DNA from: Geosiphon pyriformis uo1
Taxonomy: Eukaryota > Fungi > Glomeromycota
Length of the DNA stretch: 64,000 nt
Direction: 5' to 3'
NCBI GenBank assembly: GCA_016748015.1
Contig: JAAOMT010000134.1
Coordinates: forward strand, 1,618,757 to 1,682,756
The notes beneath the pieces were generated by a model. That model did no database searches. It saw nothing but the letters and a program-made list of their open reading frames with translations, and was not told the origin of the DNA. A program made the position numbers and the translations under genes. Shown here in pieces: positions 18,664-64,000 of this stretch (position 1 is the first letter of the stretch; the number at the start of each line of letters is the position of its first letter).

Positions 18664-19487
18664 TGTTACAGGTGATTATTTGGGGTCTCAAGTCAAATAA
18701 CAAACCCATAACTTGGTGCTTGATTGGTATTTTCTGGTGTTGATATTTGAAGGTTTTGGTATAGAGTTCTTTGTATAATGAACAGAGATTTAATAGTTGT
18801 GTTATCCATAGCTTTTCAAAACCACAGTTTCATCAATTTTTTTCTCAGCATAATGGCCAGTATTTTTCCTGGTAAGCTATCCTTAATTAAATGTTCTATC
18901 CTTATTTCTAGGTCTTTTTCCAGTCACTTTGATGTCAGTAACTCTGTGTATTATTTTCTTTAATCAATTAGTACACAACAATAAAACCAAAGAAAAGAAA
19001 TAAAAAAAAGAAAATAAAAAAATAAGCCAAGGCAATTTGCAAGTTAGTATCTCATTAATAGCCATAATCAAGAGCTATTGTTCCAGTGTGGTTAAGTATT
19101 AATTGCTATTAACATGAAGTGTTGATAATAATGAGTAAGATTGAGATAGAGACTAATTATTTATTAATAGTTGTGAATAAAAGATTGCTTAGATTAAATT
19201 TAAACTGGGTGGTCTGTCTTTTCTACTTCTAATACTACCACTATATATACATAATTAAGATTCCTCAATTCTTTATACCAGAAATCTTGGAATTTCTGAA
19301 ATTCTGCAATTCCTTTTGAGAGAAATCCTGGAATTCTGGAATTCTGCAATTCTTTGTATGAGAATCCTGAAATTCTTGGAATTTTGCAATTCCTCTTAAG
19401 AGGAATTTTAGAATTCCACATTTACTATGACTACTTCTGATTGGCTAATTTATATGCTAATATACTTCCTATATTTTATAAGTAATA
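18664..19487 (-). repeat. A1 3' LTR (PPT at 19488-19503)
   Basis: TGTTACAGGTG...AGTAATA termini; adjacent purine tract on the minus strand. Confidence 0.88.
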
Positions 19488-19501
19488 TTATTCTCTTTTT
19501 T

Positions 19502-20140
19502 TTAATATTGAGCACCATCGAGATCTTTTAAATCTCCTAACTCTAATTCTCTGTTGTTGAGTATTTCTTAAACTTTTTTTTCGAGAATTACTTGGGTTAT
19601 TTTGTTCTGTAATTCTTCAAATTGGGTGTTGGTTATTTTTCCTATTTGGTTAACTATAATAGAGTCCAATTCTGGATTAAGTAAGATTTCTGGTTTGTCT
19701 TGGAATCCTGTATGTAGCTAATAGATGGCTCTTGCTTGTGTCATCAAATTGTTTTTTCCCACAAATTGTTCCAGTTGTTGCAGTATTGTTGTATCAAATA
19801 ATCATTTTGTTTTATTCATATATAAGTTCTGAATATTCAAGTATTGTCCTAAGTAAAAATAACAAAAATTTCTTGGAAATTCATGTATTCATCATTTCCA
19901 AGTTTCCTTGGTCAATTCTTGATATGTGGTGACATTTGTTGGTTCTTCTATTGCTAATTTTATTTTCAGAACCATTTTATTAATAGTGTTTTTTGTTTTC
20001 TTTTGACTTTTGTATTTGGGTATCTTTCTGGTATTTCGGTATCAAATGGTTTATTAATTGATAGTAATTTCTATATTCTGTTGTTAAATCAATTGGAAGA
20101 GTTGTTGTGCTAATGAGTGAATGTTGTCAGTGATTTTTAT
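19502..20140 (-). pseudogene. A1 ORF3 (unknown ~212 aa protein)
   Basis: Homolog of 46116-46745. Start decayed to ATA; ends DGAQY-TAA; 639 nt. Confidence 0.75.
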
Positions 20141-20199
20141 TTTTTTGAAGTCTTTTATCATGTCTATCATGTCTTTATATACTCTTTTATTGTTCAATT

Positions 20200-21576
20200 T
20201 TACATGTTTGGTCTAATGATTATGATTGGTTCCAGATCTTATGGAATTTCATCTGGTTAAACTAGTATTCTCTGTACTCCTAATTGTGGAATATTACTGG
20301 TAAATAGTGATACTATATGGTAATATGGTTTCAGTCAATTACCATGTACTGCTTTGGCTAAGATTTTGTTATCCCATCTTAATTTATAAGCTCTATTTTC
20401 AAGAATTTCTTCTATGTGAAATGGTCCATCCCATTTGGAGTCAAATTTTCCACTCCATTGTTTTTCTGCTTTAATACAATGTAAAAGTACTTTGTCTCCA
20501 ATCTTGAATTCAACTGGTTTATCTGATAGTTGGTTATTGTGTCTTTTTTTCTTTTTTTTTTGTGACTTTTGGATGTTATTAGCTGCTTTTTGCCATTTGT
20601 TTTCTAGTGTTTCCATTATGTCATATGTTTTTCTTAGCAATGTTTCCTAAAAATTGTCTTCAATTATTGGTTCTGTTGGATAAGTATTGACTTCTATTTC
20701 AACTGGTAATATTGCTGTTCTACTGTATACTAATTCAAATGGTGTTGTTTGTGTAGTGTCTTGCTTCATTGTCTGATAAGTAAATAATACTGATAGTATG
20801 AACAAATTCTATTTATTCTGGTTTTTTTGATTAATCTTGGCAATTGCTTTACACAATGTTCTGTTAAATCTTTCAACTAACCCATTTGTTTGTGGATGGT
20901 ATGGTGATGATAATGGTCTTTTTATCCCAAATCTTTGACTTAATTCTGTTAATGTTTTATTCACAAAGTGAGTTTTTTGATCTAATAGTAGTTCTTTTGG
21001 ACATCCATGTTGATAAATCAACTCTTAATGAACGAATTTGGCAACAGATTCTGCATCTGTTTTTTGAATGGCTTTTGCTTCTGGCCATTTAGTGAGATAA
21101 TCCATGGCTATTGCAATATATCTGTTGTCTCTACTGGTGATTGTTAATGGTCCGACTAAGTCAATTCCGATACAATCAAATGGTTGTCTTATTTTAATTG
21201 GTCTTAATGATTCACTGAGTCTTGTTCCTTCTCTTCTTTGATAAGCATCACAATTTTGAACATATTAGATGATGTCAGGATACATTGATGGCCAATAATA
21301 TCTTTTTCTGGTTCTTTTCATGGTTGCCTCTTTATAAAAATGTCCTACTGTTGGATCTGAGTGCATGTTGAATAATATTGTCTTTTTCTTTGGTTCTGTG
21401 ATTACTCTGGTTGGTTGATTTGAATTTTTTCTGTTCTTTCAGTAAAGTATATTCTGATGGTTGATAAAATATTTTGATTGTTGTTTTATGTTCCTTTGTT
21501 CTCATTGAAATAATTTTTCCTTAAACAATTGGGTATTTATATAATGTTAGAGTTGTTGGTATTTTTGTATATTCAT
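20200..21576 (-). pseudogene. A1 integrase ORF
   Basis: ATG 21576; H..H..C..C zinc motif, IGIDLVGP, SPYHPQTNGLVERFNRTL, KWDGPF. Confidence 0.88.
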
Positions 21577-21606
21577 TTTTTGTTATATTTTTGGGTTGAA
21601 ATGTTT

Positions 21607-23944
21607 TTAGATTTGTCTTATTTATGACAATCTGTCAGCATTTCCATTTTTTTTCTTTTTTTATAATGTACTGTATAATTAAATAGTGAAAGTTCTATTT
21701 TTCATCTGGCATAACAATCATTTTCAAATTCTTGTTTCTGGATTGAAGTCAATCCTTTGTGATCAGTGTATATGTCAAACTTCTGACTCAAGTATTTTTT
21801 CTATTTGATAACAGCCCAATAGATAGCTAAGTGTTCTAGTGCTGGAGTTTCATAGTTTTTTTCAGCTGGATTTAAGCTTCTACTGGCATAAACTACTGGA
21901 TGCTCTCTTCCATCCAGTTCTCTCTGCAATAGTACTGCTCTTAATGCTTGACCAGATGCATCAGTTGTTATTATAAATGGCTTGTTATAATCTGAATAGA
22001 TCAATACTGGAGCTTGAATAAGCTTTCTTCTTAATGTATCAAAAGCTTTTTGTTGAGTTTCAGTCCATTTGTATTTGGTGTTTTTTGTTTGAAGTTGGTG
22101 TAATGGTTAAGCTATTTTGGAAAAATTCTTGATAAAGCAACAGTAGTATTCTGCAAATCCCAAGAATGCTCTTAATTTGGTGAGATTATTTGGTACTGAA
22201 AAGTTCTTAACAATTTCTATCTTGTCTGAATCTGTTTTGATACCATCTTTGCTCACCACATGTCCCAAAAACTTGAGTTCTGTTTTGTCAAAGAAGCACT
22301 TGTTTGCATTTAATTTCAATCCTGCTTATCTGAGTCTTTCAAATACTTGTTGGAAATGATGTAAATGATCATCAAATGTTTTGGAGAACATATTGGTGTC
22401 ATCTAAGTAAACAACTACTGATTTTTACAGTAGTCCAGTATAGACAATTTTCATAAGCCATTGGAATATTGCTGGAGCATTCATCAAGCCAAATGGTATG
22501 ACTTCAAACTCAAAATTTCTTTCTCGTGTTGTAAAAGCCATTTTCTTTTTGTCTTCTAGTTTTATGGCTACTTGCTAGTAACCACTGTCTAAGTCTAAAA
22601 TTGAAAACCATTTTTTTCTTCCAAAAGCATCAAACAGCTCTTGAATCTTTGGTGTTGAATAGCTATTACCTTTAGTTACTCTATTCAGTTTATGGTAATT
22701 TACACAGAAGTGGATTTTCCCATTTTTCTTACAGACTAGTACTACTGGTAATAACCATGGGCTCATTAATGGCTGAATTAGCCCATTGTTAAGCATCCAA
22801 TTGATTTCTTGACAAATAATTTCATGGCTGGCTGGTGGTATTCTGTATGCTCTTTGTTTAATTGACATTATATCTCCAGTCTTAATTTAATGCTAAATTA
22901 TGTCAGTTCTGCCAAATTCATTTTTGCTTGCAAAGATGTCATTGAAGTTGTTGAGTAATATCTTAAGTTGTATTCATTGAAGTGAGTCTAAGTTTCCTAA
23001 GTTCATCTGTTCTAATTGTTCTGGTTGAAGCAGATAACATTCTTCTCATCTATAGATTGTTTGTAATGTGATATTTACATATCTACACAATTGTGAAAAG
23101 TCTGAAATGGGGTTTGGTGGTTGTTCTTCAATTTCAGTGGTTAAATATCCAATAGTGGTTCCTTCTGGTATCTCCATAATGTTTTCTATGTTGTTGTAAA
23201 TAGGGATTTTAATATGACCATGATTCTTGACTGGTATGTGTAAATTAATTAATCCAATTTTTCCTGATTCACAAAGTTGTGCTTTTGCCTCAAACATTTG
23301 AATCTGATTCTTCACTTTTCTCTCTATAGTTACTATGTACTAGTCATATAGTGGAATAGAAATTGATTGACGGGTAAAGATAATTTTTCCCTTGTCAATG
23401 ACCTTTTCTTCTGTCATATTAACTGGTATATTTATTCTACTTGTGAACCCAAATCTTTGTATCTTTCTTGCTGTTATCCCTAATTTTTTCCTGTTTCCCA
23501 CTAATATTAATTGAGCTACTTTAACTAGAGGTAGAAATATTGTCTGTGTTATTTTTTCATTTGGATCTATAGTGTAGGCCTTTTCTGAGTCATTTTGTAG
23601 CATAGCAATAATATTTCCTACATATCTTGCATCAATTATTCTTTCTCTAATGTTGATTCTTTTTTTTGCTAAGCTACTTCTAGATGCTAGCTGTACTATC
23701 ATTGTTGCTGAAATTTCCAGTGCTATTTTGAGATCAATACAGGTATGTAAATAGAATTCCAATTTGATGAGATCTTTTCCTAGATATCTCAAATCAAATC
23801 CTGCATCAGTATCATGCACCCATTCTGGCATAATACCTTCATCATTATCGCTGAATTATTTAAGTTCTTATTTCTTGGTGAGATTGGGAAGTGCGATAAA
23901 TGTTTTGGGATTTAAATCAGAGTCTGAATTGTTGTTATTTCTGT
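21607..23944 (-). pseudogene. A1 ORF1 3' part: dUTPase, RT, RNase H
   Basis: HDTDAGFDLRY, LASRSSLA, PVVLV.KKNGKI.FCV, YLDD, IITTDAS, YASRSL; TAA at 21607-21609. Confidence 0.9.
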
Positions 23945-24810
23945 TGTTACTCATAGAAATATAGGGAATATATATTAGCATAGTTATTAACCAATCAAAA
24001 GTAGACGTAGTAAAATGTAGAATTCCAGGATTTCTCTCAGGAATTGCAGGATTCCAGAAATTACAGGATTTTTACAAGGAATCGCAGGATTCCAGAATTC
24101 CAGGATTCCTCTCAAAGGAATTGCAGGATTCCAGGAATTCCAGGATTCCTGTTGTGAAGAATTGAGGAATTGAGGAATCTCAATTATGTATATATAGCAG
24201 TAGGATTAGAAGCTAAAAAAACAGATCTTTTAGTTTAGATTTCATCTAAACAACTTTCCAAAACACAAATAAATAACTGTTTGTTATCTCAAACTCACTA
24301 CCACTATCAACACTTCATGTTGATAGTAATTGATACTTAACCCCACTAGAATAATAGCTCTTGATTATGGCTATTGATGGAATACTAACTTGTAAATCAC
24401 CTTGGCTTATTTTTTTTCTTTTTTTATTTTCTTTTCTTTTTTTTATTTTTTTGCTTTGATTTTATTGTTGTTTACTAACTCTATTGAGGATTAATGTGCA
24501 GAGTATTGATGTCAGGATAAACGTGACTGGTAAAAGACCCAGAAATAAGGGTAGAACACTGAATTGAGGATAGCTTACCAGGAAGAATACCTCAAGCTGA
24601 AAAAAAAATTGATGAAACTGCAGTTTTGGGAAGCTACAGATAAAACTATTACCATTGAATCTTTGTCCATTATACAAAAAACTTAACCAAACTCTTCAGA
24701 TACAAACCTTCAGACACAAACCTTCAGATCACTATTAACTGCAACTAGATTTGAGCACCAAGTTACGAGTTTGTTATTTAATCTAACATCAGAAATAGTC
24801 ACCTGTAATA
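23945..24810 (+). repeat. A2 5' LTR
   Basis: TGTTACTCATAG...CCTGTAATA; GGAATTCC/GGATTCC array, TATATATA near 24189, T-rich tract. Confidence 0.92.
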
Positions 24811-24812
24811 TT

Positions 24813-24829
24813 TGGTGCTCCCTGTAAGG
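24813..24829 (+). promoter_or_regulatory. Primer binding site (family A)
   Basis: TGGTGCTCCCTGTAAGG, 2 nt after the LTR. Homologs at 18065 and 38342. Confidence 0.85.
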
Positions 24830-26521
24830 TATAATCTTATAGAGAACCAGCACCAACACAAATCTAAAAGTGGCAGAATCAGAAAACATAAGAGCAAACC
24901 ATCTAGAATTGGCAAAATCCTTATTTCAACACTACTGTCAACATTTGGGATTAAATTACAACCACATATCAGCAGAATCAGCTTTCAATTTTTACGTCAA
25001 TGAAAGAATTGCCTATCTGTTAGGAACACCAGTAAATATTGAATCAGCAAGAGAAGCCTTTTATAGTGAATTAATTCAAAATACCAACCTGCCAACAAAT
25101 CACAATTTTGCTTCTATTATTACAGAAATCAACAAAAAAATTGAACACCACACACAACAAAGATACCCCATTACTTATGCAAACAAAGGCAAAGGAAAAT
25201 TGCAAACACCAGCAGTAACACCCAAAAGAATACAACCATCTATTTGGAAGAAAACAAAAGTTGAGTTCCCAACTAATCCATTATACCACTATACATCTGG
25301 AAGTGTCATTAATATTACATTTACCAGTACAGTCACATCAAACATGACATTAGTATTTGGACAATTCCCATTCCAAAGTAAACAAAGGAAAGCAGAGTTA
25401 TTAGAACCATATGGCGCGTATTTTAAAAGATTTAACTCGCAATCATCAATGCCATCAGGACTTCGATCACTACCACCACCACCAGTTTTCAGTACTGCTA
25501 CTCTGTGAGAATTATCCAAAGAAGAGGAACAAGAAGAAGAGGAAGAAGAATCTGAGGATCAAGAGTTCACTTACCAAAACCCAATTTCTAAAAACCTGGA
25601 ATTTGAAATCCCAAACAATCAAACTCCAAGAAATCCAAATCAAGAAAACCCCGAAATTGAAACTCTAAATATTAGAACACCACCAACTCAGGATAATTGA
25701 AACCCTGATTTAATAAATCAACAAAACTTATCTTCAATAATCATCATCAATCAACCACCAATTAATCCAATAGCCAAACTCATATAGCAGCTACTTCAAC
25801 TACTACCCCAACAACCCATGCAACAACAACCGCTTCAACAGCCACCACAACAACCCAACTTAGATCCAATGGCCTATGCACCAATTGCAAAACTTGACAA
25901 TTTTACCAGTGAAGAAGATGACACTCAGATATGGCTGAATGATGTGGAAAAAACCATTGCAGCCAACGGATAGAATGATGTTCAAATAATGCAAGCCATT
26001 TCTTACTTTCTCAAGGATACCACCAATTCATGGTATTAGAGCTTGATTAATAAATCACAAGACTTCAATGCCTTTAAAGTGGAATTTTTAAGATACTTTA
26101 GCAACAATAACAGTATCAATCGCCTAATCAATACTTTCACCACCATAAAACAAGGAAAAACTGAAGCAGTCACCACTTACCTGGGATGCTTCCACAGAAA
26201 TCTATGCCAAATTCAAGCAATTAATGCCAACATTTCACAGTGCCACAGATCCTCAACCAGTTTATTTGTGGCCTGTGCAGCAGCATCTTACAATATGTAT
26301 GTCCATTACATTTTGGCACCCTTCAAAATGCAGTCACACACACCAGAGATTTTGAATCAGCTAAGTCTAAGACCAACCATGCCCAAGCCATCAATCTAGT
26401 GATAAACAAGTCATCTGAATTGAATTCCAAATTGGAGAAATTCAGGGAAACAATTAATCAGAAATTAGAGAGATACTTAGCTAACAACAATTAGACAATT
26501 TATCAACCACCACAATAATGT

Positions 26522-27554
26522 TGTTACCAGTAGAATTTTAGCTATTAATTAGTAGGAAAATTACCCTTATAATTCCTATAATTAATTAGTATATTAATAT
26601 TATTTCAAATTATCATTTATTATTTAATCAATTATCACATATCACAATTCAATTAAATAATCCAATTAGTATAATAAAAAGTAGGATGATCAAATTACAC
26701 AATACCCTGAACTTTGTAACATTCTAAAATTCACCGAAATTTACAGAAATTTGCCAAAATTTATAAGAAATTCACCAAAATTTATAGAAATTCACCAAAA
26801 TTATGAATAGTTCACCCAAATTAATTAATAGTTCAGCAAAATAACTTGTAGTTTATCAAAATGTATCTTTAGTTTACTGAAATTTGAGCAAAGAGAAAAA
26901 GTGCAAGTTCATAGACTAGTACTACAACAAGTTGTATAAAAAAAGAGCTTTTTTCTTCAAGAAAATATATTTTCTCATAGTACCTTACCATAGTATCTTA
27001 CTTTAAATATCTTAATTGAAACAAATTACCTTTTACAAAATCAAATAAAAATTAAATATTTGAAACCCAAATTCTTAAATTATTACACTTGAAATTCTCT
27101 CAACACATCTAACGTTTTGAAATTGATTAGCTACCAATTTCAATAAACTGTTAGTGACTTCAGGCCTAAATAGAAAACGTTTTCCTTGATAAAATCCTAT
27201 TTTTTTTACATTTTTTTTTTTTTTATTTTTTTTTCTTATTACAATCATTAGGGTAGCCTACAGACAAGATTCTTGTAGAAGAGTTAACTTTCACAGCAAA
27301 ATAACTACACATTTTTAGTAAGCTTCTAGATGAGCAATTCCTGGGAAAGAGTTGATGTTTACTACAACATAACTACATAAAATAACTGGCAAGAAATTGG
27401 CCATTCCACTTATAAGCCCAGCAGTTTAAATTATAGGAGATAATTTGAAGATAAATTCAGTTATTGGAGGTTCAATTACTTCTAAAAAACGTGAATTTGC
27501 AACCAACAGACAGTTACAACATTCAAGAAAAGAGACCAAAAACCTCCAATAACA
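26522..27554 (+). repeat. B1 5' LTR
   Basis: TGTTACCAG...CAATAACA; colinear with 35500-36524. Confidence 0.93.
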
Positions 27555-27556
27555 TT

Positions 27557-27572
27557 TGGTGCTCTCCCATGG
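27557..27572 (+). promoter_or_regulatory. Primer binding site (family B)
   Basis: TGGTGCTCTCCCATGG. Homologs at 57014 (minus) and 61903. Confidence 0.85.
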
Positions 27573-27599: not shown

Positions 27600-30500
27600 G
27601 TGGCAACCACACCAGACACAGCAACTCTAGAGTATTACCAGTCAATTTACACCCACTGCAAGCAAAAATTCAACATTCCAGACGGAATTGAAGTTGTCAA
27701 GAAATCAGTATACCAATATATTGAAAACTACATCAACAATTATCTTTTTGGAAACTACAACATTTCAGAAGTTAGAAGCAATCTTTACAATAATTTAGTG
27801 CACTATTCACGATTAGGAACAGAAGACCTGAACAGTGAAACACTTGCTACTTACTTCCAAAAACTTAATTTTAACATTATTGAGTATTGTGAAAAAAAAT
27901 ACCCAGTACAGTCTCAATACTCTATTAACTTTGAATCAGAGACAGAAACAAGCAACAAAGGCAAACAAAGATTGAAGCAATACTTAAGAACCACTCCAAA
28001 CACTCCAATACTACAAAAGACAACTGCCAAACACTTGCAAACACCTAAACAAAGAACCAGTGTCAAATTACCAGTTTCTATTACATCATTTCCAATTTCA
28101 CTTGTTTAACCACAAATACCAAATTCACCACTCAACCACTTCTCCAAACTAGAAGATTTTCAGTTACCTAGAAACCTTATTCAACAGCAGGAACCAATAT
28201 CAACAAGTGCCAATATTATTGATTACTTACAGGAAAACGAAAGTAATCATTCAGAAAGCTTGGAAAGTGAAGAAACTGAATCAGAACCAGAAAAAATTAC
28301 AGAAAATGAAGAAGAAATGGCAACTGCTTACATTGCAAAAATCCCAGAATTTACTGGTGAAGACAATGATACCAGTCCTCAAGAATGGCTTGACAAAGTT
28401 CAAAAAGCAGGAGATGCAAATGGTTGGATCACAGCAAGAATGCTCAAAACAATTCCCTACTTTCTCCAAGAAACAGCAGAAGAATGGTTTGAAAATTTAA
28501 AAGAACCATTTGAAAACTGGCAAGCATTCAAAGATGCTTTTCTACAACAATTCACCAATAACAATACCTCTATTACTCTCAGAAACCACTTTTGCAATAT
28601 CAAATAAGAAACATCTGAAACTATTATGACCTATCTTGGAAGATTTAACAAACTTCTCAAATAAATCTGACAATTGGAAACCAATGACTACTATTCTAAT
28701 GCTCAAATTCTGGATCAGTTTATAGCAAGATTAAAAAACAAACTGATTAAGAAAGTTTATCTACATGCTCCAGCAGACTTAGCAACTGCTATTAGACATG
28801 CAAAGAGCTATGAAATGGCAATGGAAAAAGCAAATCACACCAAGCTTGTAAACCTTGCAATTGAAGAAACCAGTTCAGCAGCTAAAGAAAAGATAGACCA
28901 ACTTACAAAAAAGCTTGAAAGCTACTTCACAAACCAACAACAATAGCAACAACAACCACAAAGATATCAACCCTTACAATGACACAACCAAAACAATTTT
29001 GGATCACTATCCAACAACCAACCTCAAAATTGTCATTATTGTGGAATTCCAGGACACTGGAAATGAGATTGTAGGAAATTACAAAGAGACCAACAAAACA
29101 GAAGTAATCAATGTTACTCTTTACTACAACAATCTTATTACCAATCTCCACTACCAACCTATTATTTACCAAGACCACAAAATCAAAACAGTTACTATTC
29201 ACCAGCTCCACAACCAATGCAGCAACAATATCAGCAATCTTTACCAATTCAGTCATATTAGACACTACCCACTCAACAATATCAAGTACCAGCAAGAAGA
29301 TTGGTTCAACATAACCAATTCATATCCCAAAATCAATTGCAGAGTAACAACAACAGAATCAATCCAAATAACCAGTTGGTTCCCCGAAATTCTGGTCAGC
29401 AAAGACCCAATTACTATCACACTCAACCCAGTTATCTTACAATACCAGAGGAATCGGATTTTTAACAAACTGCACTTTCTGAAGATGAAGTTGCAGTACC
29501 AAGATCAAATCCTTCCAATCATACCATTCCACCAGCTCAAATTGCCCAAAATGCCAATCTGTCAGATATATTTCCATTTGAATTTGAAGCAAATAATTCA
29601 CCATTTCTGCTTAGTAATGCCGCAGTCAATAAACAGAAAGCAATTACTGCTATGTACACAGAAGCTATAGTAGAAGGAAAACTCATTCACTTAATCTTAG
29701 ATAGTGGATTGGCTCAAAGTATCATCACTTACCAGTTAATGCAACAACTCAAATAAAATGTAGACAAACCAGTTCAAACAGTTATTGTCACAGTTGATGA
29801 TATAAAAAAGACTCCAGTAAGAGAAATTAATGATTTCCCCTTTACAATTAATGGAATCACCATTCTAGTTAAAGTTCTTATTATAGATGCACACCAATAC
29901 CAAGCTCTAGTCAGAAATAATTGACTTCTCAAGGCCAATGCAAACCTGAACTGGGAAACTCAAGAACTTAAAATCTTATATCAAGAACAATATACCATAG
30001 TACCTGCAATCTGTGGTACCTTTAACAAATGATCAGAAAAAGCTCCAGTATTTGAATTTGAAGAAAAGAAGGAAATGCCACTCACTGAAACCTATATGGC
30101 TCTTGGATTACCATCCAATTGGGCTGAGGAAACAGAACAAGAGATTTTTGAAGAATTAAGAGAATGGAAGAAAGTTAGATATTCTACACCAGAACCATGA
30201 AAAAAACCACCATACATTCTACTAAAATGCAAAGATTGCAAAAAGAAGCTTTTATCTATGGGAGCCTGTATTTCTCCAAAAGAGGAATACAAAACTCGCA
30301 CTTGTTACTTCTACAAGGCATGCCATAGAAAACGATTTGGATTTCCAAAGAGAAGTAGAAAATGGGACAAAACTTCTTGCCTTACTTGTAGAAAAATGCT
30401 ACCAGAAGAATGCAACTGGATTGATGTAGCAATGAGAGGAGGAGTATGTAATCAGATCTGTCAATATGCTTTATCAATTTCGGAAAAAGTCAGAAAAGGA

Positions 30501-51324: not shown

Positions 51325-51370
51325 TGTTTGTTGTTTTGTTGTTAATTTAAGTGGGTGTTGGTTTTGTATT

Positions 51371-54300
51371 CTAATCTTGCCTTATTCTTGAGAGACAATC
51401 AATATTGGTATGGAGTTTTTCTGATTTGTGGTGTACAATATATCAGTAGTTGGCTAAAAATCCTGTCCATTGGGTTTGTTTTGCATTCAGCTGAGTGTTT
51501 TTGTTCTGTAGCCATTTGAGTCCAATATTATCAGTGATAATATCAAATTCTTTGGGTCTGAAGTAAAGGTTAAAGTGATGTAAAGCCCAGATTACTGCTG
51601 CAGTTTCTAATTCTGTTGCAGGGTAGTTTTTTTCGGCTGGTTTCAATGTTCTACTAGCATAAGCAATTACTCACTCATTTCTATTGTCATCTAACTGTGA
51701 TAGAATAGCACCAAAGGCAGTATAAGAGACATTTGTTGCTAACTGAAATCAGTTGCTGAAATCTGAGTAGGCGAGAATTGGAGCTGTTGTTAGTTTTTCT
51801 TTGAGGATTTCAAATGTGTTTTGGTATTCAGTAGTTCATTTGTATTTGACGTTTTTGGTGGTAAACTAGTTGAAAGGTTTTGTGATTTCTGAGAATCCTT
51901 TGATAAACTTCTGATAGTAGAAGGCTAACCCTATGAATCCTCTTAGTTCTGTAGTGTTTTGAGGAGTTTTAAAGTTTTTGACAGCACTGATCTTTTCAGG
52001 GTCCAGTTTGATTCTATTTTTATTAACAATATGACCAAGAAAGGCCAAGCTTGTTTTTTCAAAGTAGCATTTTTTAATGTTAAGTTTCAGTCCTGCTTTT
52101 TGTAATCATTGAAAAACTTTTTGCAGGTGTTTTAAGTGTAATTCAAACAATAGAGAATAAACATTAATATCGTCAAGATAAATGACTACTGACTTCCAAA
52201 GGAGTTTTTTGTACACAATATCCATTAATCTCTAAAATGTTGTTGGTGCATTGCATAATCTAAAAGGCATTATATTGAATTCATAATTTCCTCCTTGAGT
52301 TGTGAAGGCTGTTTTGGAATGGTCTTTGGGATTCATGGCAATTTGCCAGTATTCGCTTTCTAAATCTAGTGTTAAAAAGTATTTGGTTTTTCCAAGGGCA
52401 TCCAACATATCATCAATTTGGGGAAGGGGATAAGCATCTCCAATGGTGACACTGTTGAGTTGTCGATAATCAACACAAAATCGTATCTTTCCATTTTTTT
52501 TTTTAACTAAGATCATAAATAAAGCCCATGAATTCATTGATGATTGAATAAGCTCATTGTTGAGCATCTGTTGTATTTCTTCGTGGATAAATTGGTGACT
52601 TTCTGGAGCAACTTGGTAGGCTTGCTGTTGCCTTGGTTTGGCATCTCCTGTATAAATTTGGTGTTGAACCAAATTGGTTCTTCCTAAGTTATTGTTGTTT
52701 TTGGCAAAGATATCGGCAAATTCTACAATTAGCTTTTTGAGCTGGCTCTGTTGCTGTGGTTCAAGTTGTCCTATGTTGATTTGAGATAGTTTTTCCATGA
52801 CAACATAGTAGTTTTCAAAGCTGGGGTTTGGGTTGATTTTTGGTAGTAAATGTCCAATAATTTCAGAGAAATTGGGGACTGTTTGGGGTAATTTTTGTTG
52901 AAAGATATTACTGTGAATAACTTCAATTTCTAAGTTATTTAATAAAACTATGGGGTAATTATTGGGGTTGTAAAAAGTAACTTGGACTTTCTTTGTTCCT
53001 TCTGGGATGTAAATATTTGGAATCAAGATATTATGTTCTAAGCAGATTCGTTCATTAGACTCAAAAATTTGTTGGGTGGTTGTTGGCTTTGGGCAGGTAT
53101 AGATTTTGGGGTGTTCTCCGAAAGGTAAAATAGTGATTGGTTGGGAAAGGCATAAAATCTGGTAAGACTCATTCTGTTCATTGAGAGCTATGTTTACTAG
53201 AACTGTAAATCATCCAGTTGAACCAAAACCTTGTGTTTCTCTTTCATTTTTTCCCAATTGTTCCCTTTAATTGACTAACTGTAAACCCGAAATGTTGATT
53301 AAGGATAAATAGATAGCTTGAGCAATTTTTTTGGCATGTTCAATTTTGAAAGGTTTATTGGTTTTGTTTTGGAGTATTACTGTTATGTCACCAGTATATC
53401 CAGCATTGATTATTCCTCTTCTGACATTAATTTCTTTGCTTGCCAAAGAGGACCGGGAAGTAATTTGAACCATTGCTCCTGGCAGAATTTCGAGGGCAAT
53501 TTTGAGGTTGATTTTTGTGAGAGATTTGGGTTTGAGAACAAGAGTATCCTTATCTGAATATCTTAGGTCATATTCAGCATTAATTTCATGTGCTTTATCA
53601 AGTTTTATTCCTTGTCCATTGTTGTTGAAGTATTTGAGTTGTAAGGCAGACTGATTTTCAATGAGATAGATAGGTGTTGCTTCAATTTCTTCTGTTGCTT
53701 CAGGTTCTCCAAATTCAATTTCATTTTCATCATTTTCACTGGACAGGGGAATGCTAAGAGCATAGTATTCAGAGCACCATTGCTCATTGCAAGGCATTAT
53801 GCATTTTTCACACAATTTAATGTTCATTTGCTCTAGCCATTGGGCTTGAACTTCTTTGATTGGGTAAGTGTAACTGGCAATTTGGTGATACACTTTTACT
53901 TCATCTTCATAGTTGTATCCAGCAATTTCAAAAATGTATGCAATGTATTTTGATTCTTTCATTTGACAAACATTTTCTTGAATGGCTCCATTGATTAAAG
54001 TCATTGCTAGATTGAAGATCATTTCAGTATCATAAGGGTAATGGTACAGTTTGTTAAGGGCACTGTTGTAAACAGAATCAAAAGGGGTTCCTTTTGTTAC
54101 TTTTTCTGAAATTAAAAAAGCATATTGGCATGTTTGATTGCAGACTCCTCCTTTGAATACAACATCAATCCAGTCGCATTCATCAGATAATCATTCTCCA
54201 CAAGTCAAACAAGGTGTTCTATCCTATTTTCCACTTCTTTTAACTAGGTGTCCCCATCATTCTCAGTGGCAGAATTTGCAATAGTAACAGGTATGGTTTC

Positions 54301-56970
54301 TGTATTCTTTCTCAGATAAAATACAAGCTCCCATTGATGAGAGTTTCTTGTGGCAATCTTTGCATTTGAGTGGAATGTAAGAGTGTTGTTTTCATGGTTC
54401 TGGTTTTGAATAGAGAACATTCCATCTGGGTGTCACTGGTTTTTTTGTTTCAAGAGAATTGTTTGTTGAAAAATACTGTTGTTCAGTTTCATCAGCCCAA
54501 TTGGAGGTTGATCTAAGTGCCATAAATGTTTCAATGATGGGTTTTTCTTCTTTCAGTTCAAATTCAAAAGCCAGAGCTTTTTTGGAGCATTTGTTGAATG
54601 TATCACAAGTGGCAAGTATCTGGGCATGTTGTCTTTGGTAGGAGATTGTTAACTCTTGTGTCTTCCAATTCAGATTAGCATTGGCTTTTTGGAGCCAATC
54701 ATTTCCAACAAAAGCTTGGTATTGGAGAGCATCCATAACCAAAACTTTGACTGAATGGTGATTTCGTCAATTGTAAATGAGAAATTGTTAATTTCTTCTA
54801 CTGAAGTCTTTTTCATGCCATCGGCAGTAACGATTACTGTCTGAGCTGGTTGGTCAACATTTCTTTTTAACTGTTGTATCAACTAGTAGGTGATGATGCT
54901 TCCAGCAGATCTACTGTCTAGGATCAAACAAATTCCCTTTCCTTCAACTTCTGTTTCAGTGTACATAGTAGTGATTGCTTTTTGTTTGTTGGTGGCTGCA
55001 TTGCTAAGCAGAAATGGTGACTTATTTGCTTCAAACTCAAAAAGGAATATATCTAAGAGGTTGGCGTTTTTAGCAATTCTGGCTGGTGGGATTGTGATAG
55101 GAGTATAGAAAAAGTTTTGTTGTTGTGCTGCAGCTCTACCTTCTGAGAGTGCAGTATGGTAAAAATCCTGTTCTTCTGGCATCATAAGATAATTAGGTTG
55201 AGTATGATAGTGGTTGGGTCTATGTTGATTCGAATTTTGAGTGGTTAATTACTTGTTGGAATTTAATCTGTTGTTGTTTGTTGGAAAACGGTTTTGTGGT
55301 GTAAATTGATTATGTTAAACCAATCTTCTAGCTGGCACTTGATATTGTGGTGTGGATGGTTGTTGATACTGTTATTGAATTGGTTGTGGAGCAGGTTGAT
55401 AATAGTGGTTTGGATATTGTGGTCTTGGTAAATATTGAGCTAGTGGTAATAGATAATATGATTGTTGTGGTTGAAAATAACGTTAATTATTCCTCTGTTG
55501 TTGGTCTCATTACAATTTTCTACAATCACATTTCCAGTGTCCTGGAATTCCACAATAATGACAATTTTGGATTTGGTTGTTGGATGGTGGTCCAAAGTTG
55601 TTTTGATTGTGTTGTTGTGGGAGTTAGTATCTTTGTGGTTATTGTGATTGCTGCGGTGGCTGTTTTTACTGTTGGTTGGTGAAGTAGTTTTCAACTTTTT
55701 TGGTTAATTGGTCAATCTTTTTTTCAGCTGCTGAGCTGGTTTCTCCAATAACCAGGTTAACAAGTTTGGTATGGTTGGCTTCTTTTATGGCCATTTCATA
55801 GTTTTTCATCTGTTGAATAGCAGTGGCTAAATCTTCTGGTACATGTGGGCAAACTTTCTTGATAAGTTTGTCTTTTAGTCCAGCAATGAATTGATCCAAG
55901 ATTTGTGCATTGGAGTAGTATTCATTGGTTTCCAATTGGTGAATTCTTCTAAGCAGTTTGTTGAATTTCTTAAGATAGGTCATAACTGATTCACTTGGTT
56001 CTTGCTTGATATTTCAGAACTGATTTCGAAGGGTGATAGAAGTGTTATTGTCAGTGAACTGTTCTAGAAAAGCAGTTTTGAATGCTTCCCAGTGTTCTGG
56101 TGGAGCTTCCAAGTTTTTAAACCATTCATTGGCTGTTTCTTGTAAGAAGTATGGAATTGCTTTTAACATTCTGGCAGTGTTCCAACCATTTGCATCTCCT
56201 GCTTTTGAGACTTTGTCAAGCCATTCTTGAGGACTGGATTTGCTATCTTCTCCTGTGAACTCAGGGATTTTTGCGATATATGTGGAGATCATTTCTTCTT
56301 CATTTTCTGAGTCTTCTGTTTTTTGTTCTGATTTGGTCTCTTCACTTCAATTTTCTGCTAAGTAGCCAATAAGGTTTGTGCTGGTTAATATTGGTTTCTG
56401 TTGTTGAATAGGGCTTTTGGGTAACTGAAAATCTTTTATTCTTGAAAACCGAATAAGTGGTGAGCTTGGTGTTTGCAGTTGAGCAAGTGAAGCTGGAAAT
56501 GATATGATTGAGAGTGGTAATTTAAAGCTGGTTCCTTGTTCTGGAGTTTGTAAATGTTTGGCAGTGGTTTTAGGTGTATTGAGAGTAGTTCTAAGTTTTT
56601 GTTTTCTTTTTCCTTTTTCTTCTTCTGTTTCCAATTCAAAACCAAGAGAAAATTTCTGTTCTACTGGATAATTCTCTTCACAATACTGAATGATATTGAA
56701 GTTGAGTTCTTGGAAATATGTTTCAAGTGTTTAACTGTTAAAATCCTGAGTGTTTAGACGAGAGTGATGTACTAAGCTTTCATATAAGTTGTGTCTAACT
56801 TCTGAAATGTTGTAGTCTCCAAAAAAATAATTGTTGATGTGATTTTCAATATACTGGTAAAGTGTTTTCTTGAATGTTTCAATTCCGTTTGGGATGTTAA
56901 ATCTCTGCTTGCAGTGGGTGTAGATTGACTGATAATACTCTAGAGTTCTTAAATCTGTTTGAGCCACCAC
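51371..56970 (-). pseudogene. B2 ORF1 (Gag-PR-Cys-rich-dUTPase-RT-RNase H)
   Basis: GTG 56970, in-frame ATG 56292, YLDD, TAG at 51371-73; one 1-nt deletion near 54750. Confidence 0.9.
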
Positions 56971-57999
56971 TTTTGAAGTTGTTGTTGCTGTGTTATTTCT
57001 GTGGGAGAGCACCAAATGTTACTGGAGGTTTTTGGTCTCTTTTCTTGAATGTTATAACTGTCTGTTGGTTGCAAATTCACATTTTCTAGAAGTAGTTGAA
57101 CCTCTAATAACTGAATTTATCTTTAAATTATCTTCTATAATTTAAATTGCTGGGCTTATAAGTGGAATGGCCAATTCTGTGCCAGTTACTTTGTGTAGTT
57201 ATGTTGTAGTAAATGTCAACTCTTTCCCAGGAATTGCTCATCTGGCAGCTCACTAAAAATGTGTAGTTACTTTGCTGTGAAAGTCAACTCTTTTACAAAA
57301 ATCTTGTCTGTAGACTACCCTAATGATTATAATAAGAAAATAAAAGAAAGAAAATAAAAGAAATGTAAAAAAAATAGAATTCTGTCAAGGAAAACGTTTT
57401 CTATCCAGGCCTGAAGTTACTAACAGTTTACTGAAATTGGTAGCTAATCAATTTCAAACTATTTAGTAGAAATTGGTTAATTTCAAAAGGAAAATAATTA
57501 AAAATTTGATTTTTTGAATTATTTGATATTTATTTTGTTTTTGTGTGTAAAAGATAATTCTAATTGTTAAATCTGAAGTAAGATATATTTTCTCGAAGAA
57601 AAAAGCTCTTCTTTTATACAACTTGTTGTAACACTATTCCATGAACTTGAACTTTGCTTTTTTTCTACAATTTTGCTGAACTAAAGATACATTTTGGTAA
57701 ACTACAAGTTATTTCTGCGAACTATTAGATATTTCGGTGAACTATCAATTATTTCAGCAAATTTCTACAAATTTTGGCGAACTTTTGAATGTTACATATT
57801 TCGGGGTATTGCATGATTGATCATTGCACTTAGGTTACATTTGTGTTATATACAAATTGGATTATTAATTAAATGATAATTTCAGACATTTTGCTAATAT
57901 AATAAGTGATAATTTGAAACAATAATATATACTAATTAATGATAAAATTTATAAGGGTAATTTCATGCTAAACAATATCTCTAATTTCATCTGGTAACA

Positions 58000-60889
58000 A
58001 CGACTTATCCAGTTGCTGATAAGAATCATGTATTGGCATAAAATGTTGCATGTTTTTCCTTATCCAGGAATGTTGTTCCACATTCCTTCATAGAGTAATT
58101 GTTTCTCACAAGTGAGACATGGTTTGTTGTCCCACTTGTTTTGTTATTTTGAGTAGCCATATTGTTTTTGGTTGCATGGCTTGCAGTAATAGTGGGTTCA
58201 TGTCTAGTAATCTTTGTCAGATGTAATCTAAGCTCCCATGGAAGAAAGTTTCTTGCCACAATCTTGGCATTTGAGTGGAATATGTGGCAGTTGTTTTAAT
58301 GATTTATGTGAGTAAGATCTCTCTTAGCCACTAGTTATTTCTTCAGTTGTTGTGTTTTCTTCTGTTGTGTCCTCTTTCTTATCTTTCTCTTTATTATCTC
58401 AAGAAAGTACTGATAGTAGCTTATTGTGTTCGGTGTCAGCCCAGGAGACTTGATACACTTCTTAGGTAGGTTTTCTTTTTTTTTCTTTTAATTCAATCAG
58501 TGGTTTGTCATTGAGAGTGGTTTTGAAATAATCACAAGTGGCTGGCACACATGTGTGGTGGCCATTCTAGCTGAGTTGTAGTTCTTGGGTGTTTCAGTCG
58601 AGCACGGTGTTGGCTTTTAACAGCCAGTTGTTTCCAACAAGAGCCTGATACTGAGTTGCTTCCATTACCAATATTTTGATCAGTATTATGATGTTGTTGA
58701 CTTCAAATAGGAAGTTGTCTATTTCACTAATCAGAGTTTTGGTTGCTCTATCAGCAGTAATTATACGTATGCTGGCAGCATGATCAACTCAGTGACCTAA
58801 TTGGTTTATAAGTTGTTGTGTAATGATACTGCCAGCTGATTCACTGTCTAGGATCAGTTTAATGTGCTGCCCAGCAACTTTAGCATTGGTATATATCACA
58901 GTGATAGATTTTGATTCTAGGGTGACTTCACTGAATAGTGGCATTTCAATTGGTTTCTTGAATTCAAAAAAGAAGATAGCAGTAAGTGATTTGTCTTCTG
59001 TAATGGTTGCTGGCAGAATATTGTTGGTAAATGGTTTTTGGTTGACTTCTGATTTGTTGAATGTGGCATCTTCTGGGGTAATCAAGAGACTTAAATAGTT
59101 CTGGAAATTTGGGTTTTGGGTGTACTCAGTGCCTAAATTTTGTTGTTAAAATCCTGATGGTTGCATAGAGGAACTGGGAATCAGTTAATAAACTACCATT
59201 GACAATCTCCAACTTTGTTGTGTCAGTTTTGGCCTTTGGTTTCCATTTTGAGGTAAGTTTTGTGACAGTAGTTGAATTTGTTGGGGCTAATAAATTATCT
59301 GAGGCTGCAGCTAATAAATGGGTTGAAACTGCAATTGATAAACAATAAGTACTGAAAGCTGATAAATTGGTGGTTAATAGATTGGCTGTTGTGTCATAAG
59401 TAGGTAATTCAGTTGATATGGTGCTGGGTTGGGTTGATAATTTGGAGCTTGAAACTGGCAATCAGGATTTCAATATTGATTTCCCAATCGTGAATTATTA
59501 CTATAAATCAGTAGTCAGCTCTAATGTGGTCTTGTTTATCACAGTTATGGCAAACATGTATCTCTTGTTGCCATGGCTGATTTGATAATAATAATAATGA
59601 TGGACATGACTGATTTTGGAAATGATTCATGTTTCCTAAGTTATTGCGTCATTGTGGTAATTGATAAATTGGTCAGCTAAGTATCTTTCTAATTTCTGAT
59701 TAATTGAATTACTGAGTTGTTTCAATTTGGAATTCAAGTTAGATGATCCATTTATTATTAGGTTAACAGCTTGGGCATGGTTTGCTTCAAGTTCTGCCAA
59801 TACAAAATCTCTCACATTGGTGACTGTGTCCTGAAGAGTTTGTGAGTGCATTGGGCATACACGTTGAAAAAGACTACTGCACAGTTCATGAATGAACTGG
59901 TTTAGGATCTGTAGTGCTGTAAAATAATCAGCTTGAATGACTTGAATTTGGTGCAAGTTCTTGTGAAAGCATCCCAAGTAAGTAGTAACTGTTTCAGTTT
60001 CTCTCTGTTTGATTGTAGTAAAAGGGTTGGTTAGGTAATTAATACTGTTATTGTTACTAAAATATCTCAAGAATGCAATTTTAAATTCCTGGAATGTTTG
60101 AGGTTTAGTGGCTAAACTCTGATACCACAAGTTAGTCATATCCTATAGAAAATAGGGAATTGCTTAAAAGGCTTTGTTGTTATTCTATTTATTGGCTGTG
60201 ATGGCTTTTTTCACATCATTGAGCCATATTTAGGCATTGTCTTCTTTGCTGGTAAATTTTTCTATTTTGGCAATTGGAGCATAAGCCATTGGTTGTTATT
60301 GTGGTTGCTGTTGGATTTGTTGTTGGGGTAGTGGTTGTAGCTGTTGTTGCTGTTCAGTGATTGGTGGAACTGGTAGTGGATTGATCATGATTACTAAAGG
60401 TAAGTGTTGTTGATTATTAATGTCAGAATTTCAATTGTTTTGGTTTTTCAGGGTTTGATTAACCAGAGTCCCAATTTCTGGTTTTTCTAAGATCATGTTT
60501 TGGTTACTATTTTCCTGATTACTATCTTCTTCTTCTTCGGAGTCAGTTATTTCCCAAGAACTAATGGCTTCAAAATCTGGTTGTGGTAGTGGTGATTAAA
60601 TTTCTAATGGCATTGGGAATCGTGATTTAAATTCCTTAAAGTAATCGCCATATGTTCCTAGTAATTCTGTTTTCTTTTGTTTACTTTAGAACAAGATCTT
60701 ATTTAATAGTGTGATTGCATTTGTGGTGGACATGCCTGTTGATATTATATTGATAGTACTTCCAGGTATGTAATAATATGATGGATTGGCTGGAGAAACA
60801 AATCTTTGTTTCTTTCAAGTGAGTAGTTGGATTTGCTTTGGGGTTCTTGCTGGTGTTTGTAGCCTTCCTTTTTCTTTATCAGCAAATGT
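58000..60889 (-). pseudogene. A1 ORF1 5' part: N-terminal linker, capsid (ATG 60289), zinc knuckle, protease, start of the Cys-rich domain
   Basis: MAYAPIAK, FLRYFSNNNSIN, CHNC..QDHIRADY, LILDSESAGSII. Confidence 0.85.
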
Positions 60890-63800
60890 TGTTACCAGTA
60901 GAATTTTAGCTATTAATTAGCATGAAATTATCCTTATAATTCCTATTAGTAATTAACATATTAATATCAATTCAAATTATCACTTATTATTTAATCAATT
61001 TATCACATATCATGATTCAATTAATAATCTAATTAGTACAACAGAAAGTAAGATAATCAAATTACACAATACCCTGAACTTTGTAACATTCTAAAATTCG
61101 CCAAAATTTACAGAAATTCGCCGAAATTTATATGAAATTCGCCGAAATTTATAGAAATTCGCCGAAATTATGAATAATTTATCCAAATTAATCAATAGTT
61201 CAGCAAAATAACTTGTAGTTCATCAAAATGTATTTTTAGTTTGCCGAAATTTAAGCAAAAAGAAAAAGTGCAAGTTCATAGACTAGTACTACAACAAGTT
61301 GTATAAAAGAAGAGCTTTTCTCTTCAAGAAAATGTAACTTACTTTAGATTTATTACTTAGAACCATTCTTACACACACAAAAAGAAATAAATATCAAATA
61401 ATTTAAAAAACCAAATTCTTTAATTATTGCACTTAGAAAATCCCCAAAACCCAACTAACGTTTTTGAAATTGATTAGCTACCAATTTCAGTAAACTGTTA
61501 GTAACTCCAGGCCTGGATAGAAAACGTTTTCCTTGATAAAATCCTATTTCTTTTACATTTTTTTATTTTTATTTTTTTTTCTTATTACAATCATTAAGGT
61601 AGCCTACAGACAAGATTCTTGTAGAAGAGTTGACTTTCACAGCAAAGTAACTACACATTTTTAGTGAGCTTCCAGATGAGTAATTCCTGGAAAAGAATTG
61701 ACATTTACTACAACATAACTACATAAAATAACTGGCAAGGAATTGGCCATTCCACTTATAAGCCTAGCAGTTCAAATTATAGGAGATAATTTGAAGATAA
61801 ATTCAGTTATTGGAGGTTCAACTACTTCTAGAAAACGTGAATTTGCAACCAACAGACAGTTACAACATTCAAGAAAAGAGACCAAAAACCTCTGGTAACA
61901 TTTGGTGCTCTCTCATGAAAATAACACAGCAAACAACAAACTTCAAAGTGGTAACCACACCAGACACAACAACTCTAAAGTATTATCAGTCAATTTACAT
62001 CCATTGCAAGCAGAGATTCAACATCCCAAATGGAATTGAAATTGTTGAAAGAACATTCTACCAATACATTGAAAACTGTATTAACAATTATCTTCTTGGA
62101 AATTACAATATTTCAGAAGTGAGAAGCAATCTCTACAATAATCTAGTACACTATTCACAATTGGGAACTGAAGACCTTAACAGTAAAACACTTGCCACCT
62201 ACTTTCAAGAACTCAATTACAACATTATTAAGTATTGTGAAGAAAAATACCCAGTACAGTCTAAATACTCTTTTGACTTTGAATCAAAAACAGAAACAGG
62301 CAACAAAGGCAAACAAAAAGTGAAACAACACTCAAAAACTGCTCCAAACACTCCAATACTATCAAAAACAACTGCCAAACACTTGCAAACATCTGAACAA
62401 GAAACCAGTGTGAAATTACCACTTTCTATCACACCATTTCCAATTTCACTTGCTTGACTACAAACACCAAATTCACTACTTAACTATTTCTCCAGACCAG
62501 AAGATTTTCAGTCACCTAGAAATTCTACTCAACAGCAGGAATCTATATCAACAAGCACCAATATTATTGAATACTTGCAGAAAAACGAAAATGATCATTC
62601 AGAAAATTTGGAAAGTGAAGAAACTGAATCAGAACAAAGAGAAGCCACAGAAAATGAAGAAGAAATAGCAACTGCTTACATTGCAAAGATTCCAGAATTC
62701 ATAAGTGAAGATAATGATACCAGTCCTCAAAAATGGCTTGACAAAGTTCAAAAAGCAGGAAATGCAAATGGTTGAATTGCAACAAGAATGCTTAAAGCAA
62801 TTCTCTACTTTTTTCAAGGAACAGCAGAAGAATGGTTTGAAAATTTAGAAGAACCATTTGAAAACTGGCAAGCATTCAAATATGCTTTTCTACAACAATT
62901 CACCAACAACAATACCTTTATCATTCTTAGAAACCACTTTCACAATATCAAACAAGAAACATCTGAAACTGTTATGACCTATCTTAGAAGATTTAATAAA
63001 CTTCTCAAATAAATCCAACAATTGGAAACCAATGATTACTATTCTGATGCTCAAATTCTGAATCAGTTTATAGCAAGGTTAAAAGACAAACTGATTAAGA
63101 AAGTCCATCTACATGCTCCAGCAGACTTAGCAACTGCTATTAGACATGCAAAGAGCTATGAAATGGCAATGGAAAAAGCAAATCACACCAAGCTTGTAAA
63201 CTTTGCAATTGAAGAAACCAGCTCAGCAGCTGAAGAAAAGATAGACCAACTCACAAAAAAGATTGAAAGCTACTTCACAAACCAACAACAACAGCAACAA
63301 CAACCACAAAGATATCAACCCCTATAATGACACAATCAAAACAATTTTGGATTACCATCCAACAACCAATCTCAAAATTGTCATTATTGTGGAATTCCAG
63401 AACACTGGAAATGAGATTGTAGAAAATTACAAAGAAACCAACAAAACAGAAGTAATCAATGTTACTCTTCACTACAACAATCTTATTACCAATCTCCACT
63501 ACCAACTTATTATTTACCAAGACCACAAAATCAAAACAGTTACTATTTACCAATTCTACAACCAATGCAGCAACAATATTAGCAACTTTTACCAATTCAG
63601 CCATATCAAACACCACCCACTCAACAATATCAAGTACCAGCAAGAAGATTGGTTCAACATAACCAATCCACACCCCAAAATCAATTGCAGAGTAACAACA
63701 ACAGAATCAATCCAAATAACCAGTTGGTTCTCCAAAATTCTGGTCAGCAAAGACCCAATTACTATCACACTCAACCCAGTTATCTTACAATACCAGAGGA

Positions 63801-64000
63801 ATCAAATTTTCTACAAACTGCACTTTCTGAAGGTGAAGTTGAAGCACCAAGATCAAATCCTTCCAACCATACCATTCTACCAGCTCAAATTGCCCAAAAT
63901 GCCAATCTGTGAGATATATTTCTATTTGAATTTGAAGCAAATGAATCATTATTTCTGCTTAGTAATGCAGCAGTCAATGAACAGAAAGCAATTACTGCTA
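60890..64000 (+). mobile_element. Ty3/Gypsy element B3 (5' LTR 60890-61900, PBS 61903, gag from 61948), runs off the window
   Basis: TGTTACCAG...CTGGTAACA 9-bp terminal inverted repeat; colinear with B1. Confidence 0.93.

Follow-up and report, generated by a model that had tools for sequence, protein, structure and literature searches.

In canonical Ty3/Gypsy retrotransposons the integrase (IN) is encoded within the Pol frame, chromovirus integrases carry a chromodomain, and Gmr1-like elements have the integrase before the reverse transcriptase (RT). Elements bounded by long terminal repeats (LTRs) are thought to deliver their integrase by cleavage from a Gag-linked polyprotein. We analysed a 64,000-nucleotide stretch of the Geosiphon pyriformis uo1 genome (the window; contig JAAOMT010000134.1, positions 1,618,757 to 1,682,756), which holds LTR elements in which the frame for Gag, protease (PR), RT and RNase H (RH) stops after RNase H, and the integrase and a third open reading frame (ORF3) have start codons of their own. 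Judged from their sequences, these elements belong to a distinct Ty3/Gypsy clade that is defined by a free-standing integrase and carries a third ORF.

From about 16 kb on, the window consists of LTR elements stacked and nested in one another. Family A is present as two complete copies of about 10 kb (A1 and A2) and as A3, which is cut by the window end; family B comprises B1 (minus strand), broken up by three insertions, B2 (plus strand, 5' part) and B3 (plus strand). LTRs with TG...CA ends, a primer-binding site (PBS) and a polypurine tract (PPT) are all present, and in both families the LTRs start with TGTTAC and finish with GTAACA. The two families share one layout, even though blastn at E 1e-5 finds no match between their LTRs, as a preliminary description made from the letters of the window had proposed.

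The RNase H stop and the integrase frame

RNase H ends at the same stop column in all four copies that span it (TAA in A1, B3 and B1, TAG in A2), and the integrase ATG follows after 57 nt in A1, 46 in A2, 59 in B3 and 30 in B1, with all three frames represented. The matched Pfam families were Retrotrans_gag, Ty3_capsid, RVT_1, RT_RNaseH and Integrase_H2C2, in the order PR-RT-RH-IN; Gag, CCHC, dUTPase, RT and RH of A1 were confirmed by Pfam; the B3 protease was also confirmed in this way, and that of A1 was recognised from its motif. The layout first described, with a stop after RNase H, an integrase with its own ATG and then ORF3, is upheld by the shared stop column and by relatives that are likewise split.

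Over 2,869 columns the LTR pairs 26522/35500, 48143/57017 and 23945/46758 show 182 transitions and 6 transversions. All copies are thus heavily decayed, and a lone stop codon proves nothing. CpG stands at 0.07-0.27 of expected in the element stack versus 0.8 in the first 16 kb, and the C-to-T rates between LTR pairs (0.50 at CpG, 0.22 at CpA, 0.23 at CpC and 0.14 at CpT) suggest a process like repeat-induced point mutation or a broad methylation-driven one. With 21 internal decay stops in A1 ORF1, the stop after RNase H could itself be a product of C-to-T decay, but this explanation is refuted. When 623 contigs from other copies were aligned over 33165-33315, no variant at or above 3% was recorded at codon 33222-33224, while the neighbouring A1-private decay sites 33203, 33240 and 33242 reverted in 75-88% of depth, and it is therefore not a decay product; these contigs are unitigs from one run, possibly the window's own source, and sample other copies rather than another organism. 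The single ATG in the A1 spacer was private to A1 in this comparison. The stop is also carried by the intact relatives L005, L011, L013 and L016 (L numbers denote loci, P numbers proteins), in which observed over expected CpG is near 1, where a conventional fused Pol might have been looked for.

Transversions between A1 and A2, counted at first, second and third codon positions, were 16/10/38 in RT, 20/5/42 in IN, 14/10/29 in ORF3 and 11/9/35 in the Cys-rich insert of ORF1, with a weaker third-position signal in the N-terminal domain (11/4/13) and no third-position excess in two spacers (11/12/11). In ORF1, 11 of 12 indels were multiples of three, versus 0 of 2 in the RH-IN spacer. By these counts the RH-IN spacer and the other spacer evolve as non-coding sequence. 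The integrase is very probably a separate protein.

The same split is seen in relatives found in soil metagenomes and in glomeromycotan genomes, several of which have kept their reading frames intact, and this bears out the suggestion that related fungi should be searched for the same layout. From 2,963 candidates, an integrase search retrieved 962 hits with lengths of 253-807 aa, and 98 of the 120 matches listed share one aligned Met as their first residue. Longer forms were represented by 74 hits in a further search, and the four at 38% identity or more were all glomeromycotan NCBI gene models. When 192 long proteins were ranked by RT plus RH score (110 of them listed), the best 19 all lacked an integrase and 18 of these ended within 4 residues of the RH end. 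Among 80 metagenome loci, the ten clade loci showing both RH and IN were all split, eight of them out of frame, and more distant loci were mostly fused. One near-complete element, L019, has LTRs that are 96.8% identical. No relative was found in viral contigs.

In a FastTree phylogeny of 158 RT-RH rows, from which multi-RT and partial rows had been dropped, the window copies fell in a 57-row branch with support 99, made up of 53 split rows and 4 joined gene models. A 113-row IN tree gave a matching 55-row branch (support 96), and an IQ-TREE analysis of 66 hand-picked RT-RH rows again recovered the clade (SH-aLRT 99). The RT-RH and IN trees are unrooted, with Gypsy-like search hits as outside rows, no non-Gypsy outgroup and no named GyDB references. 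Two split rows fall outside the 57-row branch; L039 was set aside as nearly identical to the fused L041, and P0284 as cut inside IN. Clade RTs are 45-50% identical to those of fused-Pol relatives, and IN-first rows, with the Gmr1-like arrangement, form a separate branch. These congruent clades, together with the lack of a published description in our searches, agree with the distinct lineage first suggested. No PF00385 chromodomain was found among the 120 close integrases listed, which therefore lack the C-terminal domain that marks chromoviruses; the window integrases end about 50-70 aa past the GPF motif.

A few observations run counter to a separate integrase and would fit a conventional RT-RH-IN fusion that is still made through stop readthrough, a frameshift or a junction-skipping intron. 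RH and IN are joined in four NCBI gene models from within the clade; a fifth, P0130, retains the RH end, followed by a linker about 140 aa long. One RH-IN join is common to three Rhizophagus clarus models, and P0127 and P0128 are joined too. Of the 14 junctions, four are in frame, and two of these, A1 and L016, have only the single stop. Readthrough-type UGA-CUA stops also occur elsewhere in the clade. On the other side, the frame is shifted at 10 of the 14 junctions, with both alternative frames represented, the integrase Met is conserved, and the joined models P0127, P0128, P0270, P0275 and P0296 delete the RH end with its conserved NxDxLSR motif, no GT donor being common to that position among the 14 RH ends listed. 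We therefore consider such a fusion improbable.

Proposed translation of the separate frames

In our best explanation, which we hold to be probable, the elements are decayed members of a Ty3/Gypsy clade from glomeromycotan-type fungi whose split integrase is likely made by reinitiation on the same RNA. ORF1 would start at a conserved GTG, a shorter Gag could come from a downstream ATG, and the integrase and then ORF3 would be made by termination and reinitiation across short spacers. Reinitiation would give a lower dose of integrase when Gag and RT come from one frame. Contacts with RNA or protein would bring the integrase to the particle or cDNA without a Gag fusion, much like foamy-virus Pol. 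ORF3 is a candidate helper for integrase reinitiation or loading, and the dUTPase may be an accessory capture in some branches.

Reinitiation is indicated by short spacers that mostly lack ATG, good start contexts and overlapping codons. Nine of 12 RH-IN spacers had no ATG, 11 had a purine at -3, 4 had no AG and none was strongly folded; a start and stop overlap at RH/IN in L025, and L012 has an ATGA overlap at IN/ORF3. Two properties of the spacers count against this reading. They are G-poor, so the missing ATG and AG are partly compositional, and their length in the clade is 30-163 nt, while those of L004 and L019 extend to 365 and 727 nt and contain many ATGs, which fits a subgenomic RNA better. 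UGGGA, the upstream motif complementary to 18S rRNA in a termination upstream ribosomal binding site (TURBS), was present in only one of the 12 junction windows, and all four junctions of the window lack it. TURBS-type reinitiation declines beyond about 30 nt (PMC10275272), and with spacers of 30-59 nt and no UGGGA the window's elements do not show its combination of a stop and start within about 20-30 nt and an 18S-complementary motif. LINE-1 has a 63-nt spacer, SART1 reinitiation needs RNA structure and caulimovirus reinitiation requires the TAV protein (PMC5972666); no Pfam family or fold match of ORF3 points to TAV.

Alternatively, a separate integrase could be translated from its own subgenomic mRNA, arising from an internal promoter or splicing, or by internal ribosome entry. 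Besides the long spacers of L004 and L019, T-rich tracts lie upstream of IN or ORF3 in several loci, and the mRNA for foamy virus Pol is spliced (PMC3705302). An entry site could also be provided by a 45-nt RNA stem, which ends about 4-15 nt upstream of the IN ATG in eight loci of a sister subgroup (Table 1), with a weak variant in L006. In seven aligned sequences 97.8% of cells pair and five pairs change on both sides; the covariation score was 0.469 versus 0.179 for shuffles (0/500), the structure having been drawn from the same sequences. The stem had no credible Rfam match and no match in viral contigs. It is, however, absent from the window's elements, the spacers without AG (4 of 12) offer no splice acceptor, and start and stop codons that overlap, as in L025 and L012, typically go with coupled translation. 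We regard a subgenomic RNA or internal entry as possible, and moderately favour reinitiation over both.

Five of the eight stem loci also have a long tail after RH. A subgroup represented by L013:3497-4438 and proteins P0255-P0317 has a His/Cys-rich tail of 160-400 aa at this place, without a Pfam match.

The preliminary description had also placed an N-terminal domain started by GTG ahead of the Gag ATG, and had likened the polycistronic expression that it inferred to caulimovirid reinitiation and leaky scanning. AAA-GTG-G was kept in all five window copies showing the start, in both families, and the N-domains align from that codon, which points to the use of GTG as the start codon, but the N-domains of relatives L005 and L013 start with ATG. 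The domain is predicted to form four helices (pLDDT 84.6), a fold with no Foldseek match. Between the GTG and the Gag ATG, 1, 2, 6 and 4 ATGs were observed versus 7.1, 5.3, 12.5 and 14 expected, and equal-size pieces of A1 downstream contained 8-26. This depletion agrees with leaky scanning, but each family retains one common out-of-frame ATG upstream of the Gag ATG, which weighs against a clean form of it.

Three loci (L004:870, L019:3358 and L025:1585) have an in-frame TGA with CTA directly after it, 160-280 nt upstream of RT, and UGA-CUA is known as a readthrough context; L013 lacks this upstream stop, and L025 has a second, different TGA. At L021:2898-2916 the upstream and PR-RT-RH frames overlap in different frames, a possible frameshift site, and this two-frame arrangement differs from the single ORF1 of the window elements.

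Accessory domains, ORF3 and the element map

A dUTPase and a Cys-rich insert had been put forward as traits of the lineage, and neither holds as such. Of 46 clade proteins, 42 of them with PR, two had the dUTPase and none the Cys-rich insert, and the insert had no Pfam match above cut-off. A dUTPase between PR and RT has also been published for the fungal Gypsy element PosPlaTy3-5 (PMC2864245). On these grounds the dUTPase is an accessory domain and not a lineage marker, and the elements are a new organisational variant of Ty3/Gypsy set apart by the free integrase. Clade members P0247 and P0249 have a NUDIX domain in their Pfam lists, located upstream of the protease in P0247, which gives the clade a second nucleotide-cleaning enzyme beside dUTPase.

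ORF3 lies downstream of IN, with its ATG intact in A2 and B3 and changed to ATA in A1. Related ORFs of about 120-280 aa directly follow IN in eleven loci, and an ORF3 profile found 526 representatives at E 0.001 or better; four of ten looked up are named (Gigaspora, Rhizophagus, Cetraspora and Acaulospora). The L005 ORF3 is predicted as an all-helical domain (pLDDT 92.8). No Pfam family was matched by more than one of 82 members, no PDB sequence matched under E 0.29, no Foldseek match was found at E 0.001 and the best VIA Z was 5.1. Atlas matches were unnamed Mucoromycota clusters (0.92-0.93, low recognition). ORF3 thus appears, from profile searches and structure prediction, to be a widespread helical protein family without a fold match. 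Against a profile without its three close relatives the A1 ORF3 scored 14.2 bits (shuffles 6.3 at most), and hhalign gave a probability of only 7.7. The B-family ORF3 had no direct match to the family profile; it matches the A-family ORF3 (probability 84), and its tie to the family runs only through the latter. At least six clade loci with 400 nt or more of downstream sequence gave no ORF3 hit, which weighs against our best explanation.

The target flanks were ATGT/ATGT for A1, ATGA/ACGA for A2 and CTGT/CCAT for B2, with single flanks TCAT, TCAT and ATGT. In all six insertions the two central bases of the 4-bp flank are CG or what CG decays to, TG or CA (chance 0.15 each, p ~1e-5). The 4-bp CpG-centred target sites described earlier are consistent with this, the CpG itself being deduced from decay because only one flank still reads CG.

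The features are collected in Table 1. The segment 37467-47629 is probably a B3/B2 chimera, a recombinant of two nested B copies, because its 3' LTR is 90.5% identical to the B2 5' LTR and only 75% to that of B3, and its flanks are CTGT/CCAT. Close named relatives were G. pyriformis gene models, 75% identical to part of the A1 integrase and 84-89% identical to the A1 ORF3.

Table 1. Positions of the element features in the window and of the RNA stem in related loci.
Feature	Position	Strand	Remarks
B1 3' LTR	18664..19488	-	blastn to B LTR; flank TCAT
B1 3' internal part	19489..23940	-	dUTPase-RT-RH, IN, ORF3, PPT
B1 RH stop; IN ATG	21607-21609; 21576	-	stop TAA
B2 5' LTR	23945..24810	+	90.5% identical to LTR 46758-47629
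B2 PBS, GTG N-domain, Gag ATG	24811..26517	+	GTG 24870; Gag ATG 25869; interrupted by A1, resumes 36529-37462
A1, whole	26522-36524	+	
A1 5' LTR	26522..27554	+	target-site duplication ATGT
A1 primer-binding site	27557..27570	+	begins TGGTGCTC
A1 ORF1	27600..33224	+	single frame, GTG 27600 to TAA 33222-33224
A1 ORF1 order			GTG N-domain, Gag ATG 28317, CCHC 29031, PR, Cys-rich insert, dUTPase 30987-31376, RT, RH
A1 RT YxDD	32409	+	
A1 RH-IN spacer	33225..33281	+	57 nt, A/C-rich; non-coding evolution
A1 integrase ORF	33282..34667	+	461 aa, own ATG; zinc finger, DDE core, GPF motif
A1 ORF3	34812..35519	+	start codon ATA (ATG in A2); overlaps PPT and LTR start
A1 3' LTR	35500..36524	+	
B3 5' LTR	37467..38339	+	sits in B2 protease
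B3/B2 internal region	38340..46757	+	PR, Cys-rich, dUTPase, RT-RH, IN, ORF3
B3/B2 codons	38402; 39379; 44617-44619; 44679; 46116	+	GTG; Gag ATG; RH stop TAA; IN ATG; ORF3 ATG
B 3' LTR	46758..47629	+	right flank CCAT
B1 middle piece	47634..48138	-	Cys-rich insert
A2 complete copy	48143..57999	-	LTRs 57017-57999 and 48143-49123; target site ATGA/ACGA
A2 RH stop; IN ATG; ORF3 ATG	51371-51373; 51324; 49812	-	stop TAG
B1 5' piece	58004..60885	-	Gag ATG 60289, PR, start of Cys-rich insert
A3	60890..64000	+	5' LTR, N-domain, Gag; cut by window end
RNA stem	L008:582-626; L012:182-226; L013:4460-4504; L014:487-531		
RNA stem	L018:172-216; L024:5-49; L026:489-533; L027:16-60		

Outside the mapped elements, older B-type LTR pieces in both orientations lie at 16332-18660, where they make up a large inverted repeat, along with a fragment of B internal sequence. 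In the host-like region (CpG observed over expected 0.8) there is a 660-codon open frame without a Pfam match at 5165-7147 (minus strand) and a dynein light intermediate chain exon at 2197-2670 (plus strand).

Comparison with known systems

A successful clade that departs from the polyprotein integrase would mean another way to translate, dose and package integrase, and the intact members L005, L013 and L019 make this free-integrase route testable. Annotation is affected too: gene models either show clade integrases as genes of their own or fuse them to RT, and a screen that takes an isolated rve gene for a Ginger DNA transposon (as in PMC5751038) could miscount them. As LTR sequence makes up 41.2% of the G. 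pyriformis genome (PMC11952901), the clade may be a main driver of genome size.

No description of the clade or its layout was found in our literature search, outside which Repbase Reports and GyDB lay, and the layout is not described in the accessible portions of PMC5751038, PMC11075540, PMC13465315, PMC3248453, PMC11952901 and PMC5911963. The clade may already be catalogued with the split layout in Repbase or elsewhere, for example near Rhizopus Gypsy-1_RO, which would be compatible with the other readings and which we think rather unlikely. Gypsy-1-I_RO was placed by Bao 2010 among YPYY-motif integrases related to Ginger1 (PMC2836005), and the integrases described here are abundant in well-studied Rhizophagus genomes, but transposon surveys of arbuscular mycorrhizal fungi, as far as their available text goes, name only 'LTR/Gypsy'. 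Element structures are tabulated in the supplements of PMC2836005 and PMC2864245, and these could be relevant to the question of novelty.

Ginger1 resembles these elements in that its integrase stands alone, is about 400 aa long and has a zinc finger, DDE and GPY/F; it also has TGTNR ends and 4-bp CCGG or CCGT/ACGG targets, which recall the CpG-centred sites here, and its YPYY motif is shared with some Gypsy integrases, including Gypsy-1-I_RO (PMC2836005). The window integrases have aromatic residues at a similar spacing, judged by eye. Kinship of the clade integrase with Ginger1 is a lead rather than a result, and an integrase with its own start codon would offer a simple route from Gypsy to Ginger1. 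L059, considered as a Ginger-like element with inverted repeats, groups with plant Athila-like rows in the IN tree. In a bolder version, which we consider unlikely, this would be an old, undescribed Gypsy clade of fungi of the arbuscular mycorrhizal type with a three-cistron RNA, in which the free integrase is made through the RNA element (one subgroup) or through stop-start coupling and short spacers, ORF3 is a new factor driving that translation or loading the integrase, and the integrase with Ginger1-like CpG targets is the missing intermediate between Gypsy and Ginger1. Ginger1 elements themselves are bounded by terminal inverted repeats, lack RT and usually have an OTU or Ulp1 tail (PMC2836005), whereas the LTRs, Gag and RT of the window elements exclude membership.

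Among LTR elements, Troyka is likewise a distinct lineage with unusual target features, but its 3-bp target-site duplication (TSD), CG ends, single Gag-Pol including IN and restriction to animals (PMC12440569) differ, and the 4-bp TSD and TG...CA ends exclude membership. dUTPases are found in PosPlaTy3-5, in Phanerochaete elements and in Tuber Tmt1; compared by description only, the dUTPase of fungal Gypsy is part of Pol, and no separate integrase is mentioned in the accessible text (PMC2864245). In foamy virus, as here, enzymes without a Gag fusion need a separate packaging route, but there the whole Pol is separate and spliced (PMC3705302), whereas here only the integrase is split off. LINE-1, SART1, victoriviruses and hypoviruses, and CaMV also have a downstream ORF behind a long ORF (PMC5972666, PMC10275272), and the LINE-1 spacer is near the window's range in length; none of these is an LTR element, as described in these sources, CaMV depends on TAV, and reinitiation in the present elements is proposed from sequence. 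Compared with canonical Ty3/Gypsy elements such as Ty3 and DGLT-A, the TG...CA LTRs, PBS, PPT, Gag-PR-RT-RH-IN order, GPY/F motif and 4-bp TSD are alike, and, unlike in Gmr1-like elements, IN follows RH. The difference is that here a stop codon and an ATG of its own separate the integrase from Pol, and a conserved ORF3 follows.

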